Shown: positions 2,561 through 14,515 of the stretch, piece by piece
How the letters are laid out: each line of letters opens with the position of its first letter
Numbering within the stretch: position 1 is the stretch's first letter
From: Candidatus Bathyarchaeota archaeon
Lineage (GTDB): Archaea > Thermoproteota > Bathyarchaeia > Bathyarchaeales > Bathycorpusculaceae
Direction: 5' to 3'
DNA: 15,378 nt
Assembly (NCBI GenBank): GCA_963768425.1
Contig: CAVYHV010000026.1
Coordinates: 1-15,378 of the forward strand
Program-made: the position numbers and the translations under genes
The notes under the pieces: model-generated
The model's database searches: none
Seen by the model: only the letters and a program-made list of their open reading frames with translations
Told to the model about the DNA's origin: nothing

Positions 2561-3534
2561 ATGGCTGACCTACGCAAGATTCAACAAACGCCAACTGGCA
2601 CATTTTTTGTTTGCTTACCCAAAGATTGGGCTAAAATGAAAGGGCTCAAAAAAGGCACTTTGGTTTGTTTAGATATAACCAGCGACGGCAAACTTGTCGT
2701 GGACCCCGAATACAACGCTGAACCCCCAACGCGAACTACTTCTTTAACCGTTGGACCCAACCTCGGCAGGGAAATCGTGGGTCGTTACCTTTTGGGCTAC
2801 GACACCATTGATATTGAAGCAAAAGACCGAATTGACTCCGCTGCAAGAAACGTAGTTAAGTCGACTGCCAGCTCCCTTTCGGGCTTGGAAATTTTTGAGG
2901 AAACCAGCTCAAAAATTTCGCTGCACAGTTTAATGCAGCAACAGCCTTCCACTTCGCCCGAAAAAATACTACAACGCAACTACGCCATTGTAGCAGGGAT
3001 GATTCGCGACGCTGCAAATTCGTTCGTCTACGGCGACGTAAGTTGGCTAGAAACGTCATTGCAAGAGATGATGAAAGCAACAGACTTTATTTTCTACTAG
3101 TTAGGATTTTGCGAACCATAATTCAGAATCCACGGCTAAACGACAAGCTTGGAATAACCCCGATTGAGTGCTTGGATTACCGTTTAGCCGCAAGCTTAAT
3201 CGAAGGGATCGGCGATGCTTGCGTGCAAGTTGCGACAAAAACCATTGCCCTGAACGGACAAAAGTTTTCAGGAGAACTACAAAACTTGCTGGTCGAATTG
3301 GAAACTATTTGTTACGATGCTCATGAACAAGCTTTGAAATCTTTTGTAACCAAGGATATTGCTTTGGCAGCTAGCGTGCGTTGCTTGCGCGAGAAAGTTG
3401 ATACCGCCGCAATAAGCATTGAACAGTTTGCGAAGGGGTCTTCGGTGGATTTGATGCCTCAAATCTTAGCTGCAACGTCTTTTCTAAGACAGATCTATGA
3501 GCACAGCGTAGACATTGCTGACCTAGTAGCCTAA
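2561..3534 (+). CDS. AbrB/MazE-PhoU family phosphate-uptake regulator (~324 aa if repaired), interrupted by a 1-nt deletion at about 3038-3042 (sequencing error or pseudogene)
   Basis: ORF 2561-3100 begins with an AbrB-like segment (RKIQQTPTGTFFVCLPKDWA) and runs into a PhoU helix (GMIRDAANSFVYGDV). The -1 frame continues LARNVIARDDESNRLYFLLVR...LIEGIGD...YEHSVDIADLV, a typical PhoU repeat. Confidence 0.88.
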
Positions 3535-11998: not shown

Positions 11999-14150
11999 TT
12001 AGTGTTTTTGTGAGTAGTTTTTTGGTTGGTAAACGCACCAGGGATCTTCGGTTAGGTAGTCTCTTTTTAGTTCGGTTGGTTCGTGAAGGTCGCCGCAGTA
12101 ATCGATGAAGTCGTTGGATAAGCCGTAGGCGCGGGCTCGGCAGCCGCCGCATAAAGAGCGGTGTTCACAGACTCCGCATTTGCCTTTTAACATGTTTGGG
12201 TTTCTTAGGGCTTTGAAGACTTCTGAGTTAAACCAAATGTCTTTGAAACTCTTCTCTCGCACGTTTCCAAGTTTGATCGGCAAGTAGGGACACGGAGTAA
12301 CGTCGCCGTTTGGATATATGCGGCAGTAGTACTGTCCTGCGATGCAGCCGCGAATCCACTGCCTCATATCCAAGCCCATGCCTTTTGCAATTCTCATAAA
12401 CTGAGGCGCGCATGAAGGTCTTACGTTTAGCGTATGATTGGCGGTTTTCGCGAACGTTTTCGTTATCATTTCCTCATATTGCGCTGGGGAAATGTCGGCT
12501 AATTTGGTTCCCCTCCCCGTTGGAACAAGGAAGAACAAATGGAAATTTTCAACGCCGATGCTTTCCGCAAGCGCCATTATATCGTCTATTTGATTGTAGT
12601 TCTGCTGAGTTAAGGTCGTGTTAACTTGGACAAGCACGTTGTTTTTTCTCAAAGCCTTGCAGGCTTCAACTGCTTTTTCCCAAGCGCCAGCTACTCCGCG
12701 GAACTCGTCGTGCTGACCTGGGATATTGGAGTCTAAGCTGACTGAAACTGTGGCTATTCCTGCGTCTTTGAGTTTTTTTGCTACAGCCTCGTCAATGAGG
12801 CTTCCGTTGCTTCCTAAACCCATCTTCAATCCAATCTTTGCACCGTACCTGATGAGTTCATAAATGTCAGGGCGCAAAAGAGGTTCACCGCCGCTCAGAA
12901 TCAGAAGCGGACGACTGACCTGGTAGATTTGATCCATTAGGTTTTTTGCTTCTTTAGTGTTCAATTCGTTGTCGAGCTTTTTGTCCGTGGCGTTGATGTA
13001 GCAGTGGGAACATTTCATGTTGCATTCGCGGGTTATGTTCCACGACATGACAAGGGGAACAAACTGCTCCTGCTTCTTGGCAAGCGGCGAATAAGCCAAT
13101 TTGAGGTAAAACTCACAGTTAGGATGTGTTGCTAATCTTTTGGGTTGCCAAAGGGTGAATGGGAAAGGCAGAACCGTATCCAACATTGCTTTGGCATGGG
13201 CAAAACAGAAATGGGTGCAAAAAAGTGAAGCTGCTTCGGGATTTACGCCGTACTTCTCCTCGGCATATTTGTGGCTTCCAAAGATCGGGCAATTCATGAA
13301 CTCCATGCGCCCATCCAACGTTTCAGTGCTCATCGTGTAGTTGATCAAGTGGTCGCTTAGCATGATTGACTGCAGCTTTTCCCTTCGCATCCCGACTTTT
13401 AAGTGTAACGTCAAGCGCGATTTCAACGGTTTCTTGACCGAACCTGTCCTGCACCCTCTCCATCGCATCTTCAACCGCCTGCACCCCCAAATCCTCAGCC
13501 AGCTTAGCCGTGACCAGTAGACCCTTAATTGTCTCATACTCTTGGATCAGCCGCATTCGAATAATCTGTTCTGTCCAAGCAAGAAACAGTTTTTCCAACG
13601 CTTCAGACGCCTTGGGATCCTTGTTAGTTAAAGGCTCTTCAACGTTTTTTCTTTCTTTTTTTAGCTTATTGAAAAGGTTAATTTTGTCTGTGTTTTCAAG
13701 ATGTGTGCTTGACGCTATTTCTTGGGCGCTTAAAGTGAAAGGCGTGATTTCTCCGGTGAGCTCTTTGGCGTCTGCTTGAAAATCACTATAGATACTCTCA
13801 AGTTTTAGGGATACGTCGGGTAAACACAGTTGCAACTCGTTTAGCAGCACACTGGTTTCCGCCTCCATCTTTGTGACCATAGCCATATGGTAAAGCAGCG
13901 AACCCGACATGCCAGGGTCAGCCAGTTTGCCATTTACTCCTGAGAAAATTTCTGATGATAGACGCTTCGCCAAATCAAAATCTTCGTCCTCAATCGCGGC
14001 TAATGCTTGTTTAAGCTTTTGCTGCCTTAGAAGCAGCAGCTGCGCCCATCTGTGGCATTGTTTGGGGTCGAAGTTTGTTAATGCATCCACGTCCTTGAGG
14101 TAGTATTGATTCATGGGTTGATGGTAAAAAAGGTTAGCGGTGTTGCCCAT
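11999..14150 (-). CDS. Multidomain radical SAM/SPASM protein (AhbD/NirJ-like) with N-terminal helical and V4R/ATC-hydrolase-like Cys domains; ~716 aa if the extra base at 13397-13400 is removed
   Basis: CNMKCSHC radical SAM motif, LSGGEPLLR, VSVSLD, FHLFFLVPTGRG, SCAPQF, and SPASM GCIAG..YC...G.V.PC...KCGVC....CGGCRARA...DPWC. ORFs 13323-14150 and 11999-13537 join at CTT AAA A GTC GGG ATG (minus strand). Confidence 0.8.
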
Positions 14151-14314: not shown

Positions 14315-14515
14315 ATGAGCGTTAAAATGTGGTGCGTAGGCTACTTGGCGGTGGCAGTGGTCTTCGATGTACTGGTGGTTTTCGGGTTGGTCGGAAACTA
14401 TGCACCTCTTAACGATTTACTTATAGGGCTTTCAGCAGGAGCTGCAACAGGATTAGCCCTTCACGTTATGCATCACATAAACGAAGAAAACATCAACCCA
14501 ACAATAATGGGTTAA
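14315..14515 (+). CDS. 66-aa two-TM small membrane protein
   Basis: Two hydrophobic helices, GAGGA before the ATG, and a His cluster LHVMHH after helix 2. Confidence 0.7.
   Translation: MSVKMWCVGYLAVAVVFDVLVVFGLVGNYAPLNDLLIGLSAGAATGLALHVMHHINEENINPTIMG

Follow-up and report, generated by a model that had tools for sequence, protein, structure and literature searches.

AhbD, a radical S-adenosylmethionine (SAM)/SPASM enzyme among the closest known relatives of the protein considered here, has been reported to carry two auxiliary clusters (PMC10452713). Its homolog Gms, 36% identical to the M. barkeri enzyme, has been described as the glycerol monoalkyl glycerol tetraether (GMGT) synthase of archaeal tetraether lipids; it has an N-terminal extension of ~100 amino acids with six helices (COG4001), which presents a hydrophobic cavity to the active site and is proposed to be a substrate domain (PMC11214058, PMC11186832). 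Separately, V4R and Bet3 domains are reported to be homologous (PMC2253512), and in DmpR zinc is held by Cys151, Cys177, and Cys185 (PMC7264223). Here, we analyze a minus-strand gene at positions 11999..14150 of a 15,378-nucleotide stretch of Candidatus Bathyarchaeota DNA (contig CAVYHV010000026.1, hereafter the window), whose predicted product places an AhbD-like radical SAM/SPASM core behind an N-terminal module of ~365 residues.

The Bathyarchaeia abound in peat, wetlands, and sediments and are for the most part uncultured; the hosts of this fusion are peat and wetland archaea. We show that the gene is a single one interrupted in the assembly, describe the predicted architecture and distribution of its product, and weigh which substrate an enzyme of this design might act on.

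One gene behind two reading frames

An open reading frame (ORF) at 13323-14150 (275 aa) overlaps by 215 nt a second frame, open from 13537 to 11999 on the same minus strand. Dropping one A from the run of four at 13397-13400 joins them into a product of 251 + 465 = 716 amino acids, the length that the original prediction, made from the letters of the window alone, had given for the repaired protein. The gene then extends from a start at 14150, or alternatively from an ATG 12 codons downstream, to a stop codon at 11999-12001. At the junction the window reads ...DVTLK and then SRDAK... up to a stop, where intact homologs read ...DVTLKVGMRREK...; the proteins P0003, P0005, P0006, P0008, and P0013 continue in frame as ...DVTLKVGMRREKLQS... 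at the point where the window switches frame. A search with the 95 residues preceding the radical SAM core retrieved 670 proteins, 110 of the best 120 being 607-728 aa long, and the 696-aa P0003 is 99% identical across the queried residues. Because homologs read through the junction and so many of the best matches have this length, the two frames are a single gene, interrupted by one surplus A, and not a chance pair. Two natural overlapping genes, in which an ATG at 13333 would overlap the upstream TGA stop by 11 nt, were ruled out because the homologs are single-frame. A programmed frameshift was likewise ruled out, since every match to the N-terminal module, except the broken copies in the genome that holds the window (G000), lies in a single open frame.

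The break is probably an assembly error. It sits within a homopolymer, the two halves are otherwise intact with 92-99% identity to unbroken relatives, and contigs of a relative ~96-97% identical (contigs 90-99% alike) have one letter fewer, at a position reported as ~13401, in all four public runs compared, from four studies. Another gene of the 15-kb contig is likewise cut, inside a PhoU domain, and the same genome's copy on contig C13 has two breaks and adjoins a split MgtE-like gene. That the four-A break is real in the strain, leaving a pseudogene or a pair of truncated products, seems unlikely against these observations; the window sequence itself shows the four As, and the exact source strain was not found among public runs, the best of which holds a fraction of 0.26 of the sampled words, so that the extra base cannot be checked in source reads. 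For annotation this is a warning, as the two-ORF call in the assembly is probably an artifact of a single extra base.

The window is the whole 15-kb contig C26 of G000, a genome of 33 contigs that is 91% complete and 4.75% contaminated. The second copy, on contig C13 (L002:1486-3439, minus strand), is syntenic and 88% identical. Given two copies in G000, one match in each of the other genomes, and the 4.75% contamination, the window contig may come from a second, co-binned strain.

Elsewhere on the plus strand of the window, ORF 3043-3534 shares 58 nt with ORF 2561-3100, whose N-terminus is weakly of the SpoVT/AbrB type. ORF 3043-3534 starts partway through a PhoU domain (profile positions 26-87), and the two ORFs together look like a second gene of the contig that is split by a frame break.

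A front module found in fusion

An intact 704-aa homolog was used to survey 24 genomes of the same genus: 19 hold an uninterrupted full-length match, two a match with one internal stop, and one a match split in two, while the remaining two have no full-length match. A second survey took the N-terminal 347 aa of P0213, from the closed genome G003, to 301 genomes of the class. This N-module is matched in 37 of them, spread over 8 of 107 genera and confined to two families (30/48 and 6/12). All matches lie within open frames of 688-741 aa, apart from one of 538 aa in G318 and the broken copies in G000, and each genome has one match, G000 excepted. Single-frame orthologs of ~690-740 aa are the rule, so that full-length fusions do exist in archaeal genomes, and the N-terminal region was found neither free-standing nor as a separate gene unlinked to the radical SAM enzyme in any of the 301 genomes. 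Mean column identity across the fusion protein is 71%.

Wider searches led back to the same family. Against 1.84 billion representative proteins the upstream ORF returned 90 clusters, largely of fragments and without exception from this family; a profile search of the PDB for distant kin of the N-module matched radical SAM enzymes only; and the scores of a first Atlas search did not exceed 0.76. Neither Pfam nor NCBIfam has a model that covers the initial ~365 residues. As far as sequence comparison reaches, the front module is always fused, lineage-specific, and without detectable distant relatives.

Predicted structure of the N-terminal module

The AlphaFold2 (AF2) model of an ortholog's N-terminal 347 residues (predicted local distance difference test, pLDDT, 88.7; predicted template modeling score, pTM, 0.88) consists of a helical bundle, two long helices, and a β-β-α-α-β-β unit. 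The bundle has four helices (~aa 28-175; 13626..14069, minus strand) and is marked by invariant columns, with an invariant Met-rich stretch, DPGM.GSLLYHMAMVTKMESE, in an alignment of 54 sequences. Its structural matches are generic helical bundles, the best at Z 7.5. A hemerythrin-like di-iron bundle was ruled out: the matches are generic (Z <= 7.5) and there is one invariant His.

The second half of the module, at ~aa 198-364 (13058..13559, minus strand), spans the frame break and is predicted to fold as an α/β domain of order α-α-β-β-α-α-β-β. Foldseek matched it to Bet3/TRAPPC3, to the V4R domains of PoxR, MopR, and DmpR, and to H-NOX, with probability ~1.0 and E values of 0.03-0.3. In VIA, for which a Z of 8 is the line for a clear match and lower values fall within the range reported for unrelated models, model residues 179/180-345 align to residues 12-170 of Bet3, nearly the whole chain, at Z 5.6-6.4; DmpR follows at Z 5.6 and H-NOX at 5.5, with 141-163 aligned residues and a root-mean-square deviation of ~4.1-4.4 across the matches. 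The best structural matches are Bet3/TRAPPC3 chains, one of them with covalently bound palmitate. An Atlas language-model search placed ATC_hydrolase and DUF6125 nearest among named clusters, at 0.85-0.87 against the tool's line of 0.9. On these models the domain is likely a divergent member of the V4R/Bet3 fold class.

Four Cys of the α/β domain (13115..13291, minus strand), C287 (13289-13291), C311 (13217-13219), C315 (13205-13207), and C345 (13115-13117), are invariant or nearly so in the 54-sequence alignment, and the helix around C311 and C315 is strongly hydrophobic and conserved (LFCTHFCFAHAKAMLDTVLPFPFTLW). Real V4R proteins of related genomes have three Cys spaced 26 + 8, as do the zinc-ligand Cys of DmpR, and the spacing of 34 between C311 and C345 equals that between the first and last zinc-ligand Cys of V4R domains, with the C-E-F ending kept. 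A zinc site of the V4R/DmpR type, with its Cys, Glu, Cys, Cys ligand set, is nevertheless absent from the fusion, in which the middle Cys position is Lys or Arg and C287 and C315 are conserved additionally. We therefore read the Cys of the α/β domain as a putative remodeled metal site, and a ligand-binding role for the N-module, as first proposed from the sequence, would be compatible with the predicted fold.

Such a V4R-like Cys domain could instead be a sensor that switches the core on and off in response to a bound metal or small aromatic effector or to a redox signal, as might be expected from DmpR/MopR and MsvR. The V4R domains of DmpR, PoxR, and MopR, which are among the Foldseek matches, bind phenol and zinc, MsvR is described with Cys-dependent redox sensing, and all four Cys are conserved in the fusion. 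We consider a sensor improbable, as a literature search yielded no precedent for one fused to a radical SAM/SPASM enzyme and the module immediately precedes the core, the position described for substrate-recognition domains in SPASM enzymes and in Gms.

A core on the AhbD/NirJ2 side of the radical SAM/SPASM enzymes

The C-terminal part of the protein contains a radical SAM core (PF04055; residues 99-255 of P0001; 12569..13039) with the cluster motif CNMKCSHC (CX3CX2C; C376, C380, and C383; 13001..13024; Pfam Radical_SAM E 1.6e-24), followed by a SPASM domain (PF13186; 12167..12346; E 3.4e-12), all on the minus strand. Further Cys of the core, at 602, 609, 620, 658, 661, 667, and 670 together with 580 and 685 in the 716-residue numbering, are enough for two auxiliary clusters, so that the core has the Cys required for three [4Fe-4S] clusters. 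All of the motifs that had originally been quoted for the protein (NCPIFG, LFCTHFCFAHAKAML, NCEFYLK, CX3CX2C at 13001-13024, HLFFLVPTGRG, CAPQF, and CGGCRARAY) are present.

The family models that fit the core best are NirJ2 (TIGR04055, 371.8 bits) and AhbD (TIGR04545, 357.4 bits), both below their curated 500-bit cut-offs. When the AhbD model was run against the genome, the fusion scored 352.4 bits and was still the top match. Each related genome searched holds roughly ten AhbD/NirJ-like paralogs; those that were scanned all scored below the AhbD and AhbC cut-offs. In a careful maximum-likelihood tree of 40 cores, midpoint-rooted and holding no experimentally characterized sequence, 18 fusion cores form one group (89/92), to which a core-only paralog of G040, G023, and G010 is sister (97/95). 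AhbD encoded within ahbABCD clusters comes next out (97/90), and 475-aa Gms-like proteins lie with in-cluster AhbC on the opposite side (97/87). Family scores and tree support, at the level of sequence, placing the core with AhbD and NirJ2 among the radical SAM/SPASM enzymes, as the motifs had first suggested.

The closest core-only relatives, 51-53% identical to the fusion core (L022:6014-8786, L023:6138-8758, and L052), always adjoin a second radical SAM/SPASM gene of 374-429 aa. The pair is followed in L022 and L023 by a small membrane protein without family match and in G040 by a polyprenyl synthetase.

Many SPASM enzymes are peptide maturases, and among solved structures the best sequence matches to the core are SkfB, SuiB, CteB, and PqqE. 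The fusion might accordingly modify a peptide or protein, with the N-module recognizing the protein substrate or offering its own Cys as targets for thioether cross-links; a methanogen SPASM enzyme has been reported to put thioethers on a Cys-rich protein (PMC13692751). This is very unlikely here: the core groups with AhbD in the tree, Foldseek and Pfam matched the N-module to no RRE-type fold or family, outside the genus the gene has no conserved precursor-like small ORF next to it, and the gene is single-copy in each genome and highly conserved, with no cluster of partner genes.

The fusion protein and the heme pathway of its hosts

Two genomes, G008 and G014, have consecutive genes for AhbA, AhbB, AhbC, and a core-only AhbD and carry the fusion elsewhere. 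Their ahbC genes score 550 and 544 bits, respectively; ahbA scores 148 bits in G008, over the cut-off, and 136 bits in G014, just under it. Some genomes of the genus thus have a compact cluster, in which an Lrp-like gene accompanies ahbA, ahbB, ahbC, and the core-only ahbD, at L043 (G008:C2:188300-192800), L044 (G014), and L045 (G019). No AhbA- or AhbC-grade match was found in G000, G003, or G040, all three of which have the fusion. Searches of whole genomes recovered hemB, hemC, and cobA/cysG from G008, G014, and G040 but from neither G000 nor the closed genome G003.

These distributions support the conclusion that the fusion protein is not the heme synthase of its host, because G008 and G014 have a separate AhbD in addition to the fusion and the closed genome G003 keeps the fusion without hemB, hemC, cobA, or ahbABC. 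The suggestion that the substrate may not be heme, made at first from the lack of other ahb genes in the window, gains support from the same two observations. The substrate is probably not the intermediate of the heme pathway, and the name AdoMet-dependent heme synthase, which some sources use for the protein, is probably wrong. Some members of the genus apparently cannot make tetrapyrroles and would depend on salvaged corrinoids.

Candidate substrates and mechanism

Our preferred, if tentative, reading is that the front module serves as an integral cap that delivers substrate to a radical reaction of the AhbD type, with a tetrapyrrole other than those of the Ahb pathway as the first-choice substrate. 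It draws on the precedent of Gms, in which an AhbD homolog is described with an N-terminal domain for a hydrophobic substrate. The substrate, a small molecule that is hydrophobic or planar, would be held by the 350-aa front module and handed by this cap to the active site; the Cys4 site of the module would bind metal, as a remodeled version of the V4R zinc site, in a structural or redox role. At the active site SAM would be cleaved reductively to a 5'-deoxyadenosyl radical that abstracts a hydrogen, and the electron would be taken off via the two auxiliary clusters, as in AhbD. With a tetrapyrrole that is not an Ahb-pathway intermediate, whether made by the cell or salvaged, the enzyme would be expected to alter a carboxyalkyl side chain oxidatively, in the manner of AhbD. 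Such a tetrapyrrole is only slightly favored over a lipid or an aromatic substrate.

Several observations weigh against the tetrapyrrole-binding cap. The full-length AF2 model is poor (pLDDT 70.5, pTM 0.52) and leaves the SPASM part unreadable, and with it the placement of the cap over the active site. The fold Z-scores stay below 8, inside the tool's noise band. Pfam gave no V4R or ATC_hydrolase match at E <= 10, and a PF02830 genome search returned nothing at the fusion locus in 13 same-genus genomes (G000 to G012). In hhalign comparisons the N-module reached a probability of 0.1% against nine V4R proteins of related genomes and 0.6% (E ~0.1) against nine ATC_hydrolase proteins of related genomes, where V4R against ATC_hydrolase in the same set-up gave 95%. 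The V4R/H-NOX/ATC-hydrolase-like fold of the original prediction is probable at the level of fold, through Foldseek, VIA, and Atlas, and fails at the level of sequence, in Pfam and hhalign. Functionally telling neighbors common to the genus and to G040 were not found. Lastly, hemC is missing from 8 of the 23 fusion-bearing genomes tested (G000, G003, G013, G348, G170, G179, G229, and G232); since G003 also lacks hemB and cobA, the fusion gene does not need cellular tetrapyrrole synthesis.

The distribution of hemC has another side. In a fixed set of 61 genomes from the family, all with a completeness of 90% or more, 11 have the fusion and hemC, four the fusion only, one hemC only, and 45 neither, so that hemC is almost confined to fusion-bearing genomes (15 of 16). 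Of the second family's genomes, G040 and G132 carry fusion and hemC together, G179, G229, and G232 carry the fusion without hemC, and G030 lacks both. Related genomes are not independent, and the link between fusion and hemC may reflect shared ancestry only, which also counts against a tetrapyrrole substrate.

An alternative is a Gms-like enzyme for a lipid or other hydrophobic substrate. An isoprenoid or acyl chain would enter the Bet3-like domain, much as palmitate sits in Bet3, and the reaction at the SPASM core would form or cleave a C-C or C-H bond of a membrane lipid. The palmitate-bound Bet3/TRAPPC3 chain among the best structural matches, the conserved hydrophobic helix around C311 and C315, and the retention of the gene in genomes without tetrapyrrole synthesis are all consistent with it, as are the polyprenyl synthetase beside the closest core-only pair of G040 and the reported making of tetraether lipid by Gms, itself an AhbD-like core with an N-terminal hydrophobic domain. 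Yet the tree, which holds no validated Gms, puts the fusion with AhbD and not with the 475-aa Gms-like proteins, the N-module has no detectable similarity to the Gms-like N-terminus, and no lipid genes adjoin the fusion itself. We regard this alternative as unlikely, though less so than a sensor or a peptide maturase.

Returning to the substrate cap, its most inclusive form, which we hold to be doubtful as a whole, would be an AhbD-derived enzyme with a sequence-orphan Bet3/V4R-like pocket and a remodeled four-Cys metal site, acting on a non-heme substrate that is needed regardless of tetrapyrrole synthesis. That substrate could be a salvaged corrinoid or porphyrin, a tetraether lipid of the membrane, or a lignin-derived phenylpropanoid whose propionate side chain would become a vinyl group; if true, this would be a radical SAM reaction undescribed so far. 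Intact orthologs are at hand for expression, among them the 697-aa gene of the closed genome G003 (L010:1510-3603).

Gene context

Within the genus the gene order is AOR, a small membrane protein, the fusion, an MgtE-like gene, and a TrkA-C/PhoU gene. The small membrane protein is encoded divergently from the fusion and has no Pfam family (14315..14515, plus strand); the same neighbor occurs in C13 and G003 and is not beside the ortholog in G040. That ortholog, 57% identical, has as neighbors MGS-like and thymidylate-synthase-like genes, a TIR effector, and an ABC transporter. The TIR effector is a CAP12/Pycsar-type domain protein (L021:3756-4538, minus strand) encoded ~1.5 kb downstream of the fusion ortholog. 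A tungsten-cofactor maturase tied to the AOR neighbor was ruled out, TIGR04317 scoring 83 bits against a cut-off of 380, and the link to AOR was itself rejected as synteny at the level of the genus, which G040 lacks and into which a histidine kinase intrudes in G003. Gene context gives no functional clue.

Comparison with known systems

With V4R, Bet3, and the DmpR/MopR/PoxR group the α/β domain shares the predicted α-α-β-β-α-α-β-β topology, and its structural alignment to Bet3 is near full-length; here it is fused to an enzyme, in contrast to the regulator-fused or free-standing domains of those families. With ATC_hydrolase (PF14196)/DUF6125 it shares, over 126-136 columns of an alignment that is not significant, a colinear Cys after strand 2, a Cys in helix 4, and an ending G-D/N-x-C-x-F. 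A 158-aa protein of another genome (L063; G028:C35:12410-12802) weakly matches both the V4R and the ATC_hydrolase Pfam models, in agreement with the 95% that hhalign gives for these two families.

Like AhbD, the fusion has CX3CX2C and a full SPASM domain, and over the whole core it is 38% identical to the AhbD of an ahbABCD cluster; unlike AhbD, it has ~365 extra N-terminal residues and no ahbABC linkage. In-cluster AhbD also lacks a 17-aa insert of the fusion cores, GLSNDFIDYCGDLHEPT (window 12050-12110, minus strand; aa 675-695). Near the C-terminus of the fusion, this insert holds a nearly invariant Cys and His, and judging from the alignment it may supply a further cluster ligand.

A full-text literature search, covering radical SAM enzymes combined with V4R, 4-vinyl reductase, H-NOX, or Bet3 as well as AhbD in Bathyarchaeota, gave no description of the architecture, as the original prediction had supposed; the supplementary datasets of PMC11214058 and PMC11186832, which lay outside the search, may list such proteins among their BLAST hits. 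The accompanying statement that members of the AhbD/NirJ group normally have only the core overlooked Gms, described as an AhbD homolog with an N-terminal substrate domain (PMC11214058).

Proteins of the Gms type are encoded in the same genomes. Length and architecture suggest that the 475-aa proteins are Gms, and the 477-aa AhbD-like protein at L006:1162-2595 (G000:C17), with an N-terminal CPxC...CPxC stretch and helices, is likely a Gms-type enzyme. It is conserved in G003, G008, G014, and G040, and its gene is flanked by a nucleotidyl-transferase-like gene and a 325-aa gene. The N-module shows no significant similarity to the N-terminus of the 475-aa proteins (BLASTP E 0.64, hhalign <1%), and homology between the two was rejected, the weak BLASTP alignment not being borne out by hhalign. 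The fusion core likewise groups with AhbD and away from these proteins, in a tree without an experimentally validated Gms sequence.

Gms nevertheless remains the nearest design known. Both proteins set an AhbD-homologous radical SAM/SPASM core behind an N-terminal domain, proposed in Gms to serve a hydrophobic substrate; they differ in that the extension described here has ~365 aa and is predicted to combine a four-helix bundle with an α/β domain of four β strands. Gms illustrates how entirely different chemistry can lie behind a resemblance to AhbD in a protein with an additional N-terminal domain, and the fusion protein is a well-defined second candidate for such a case.

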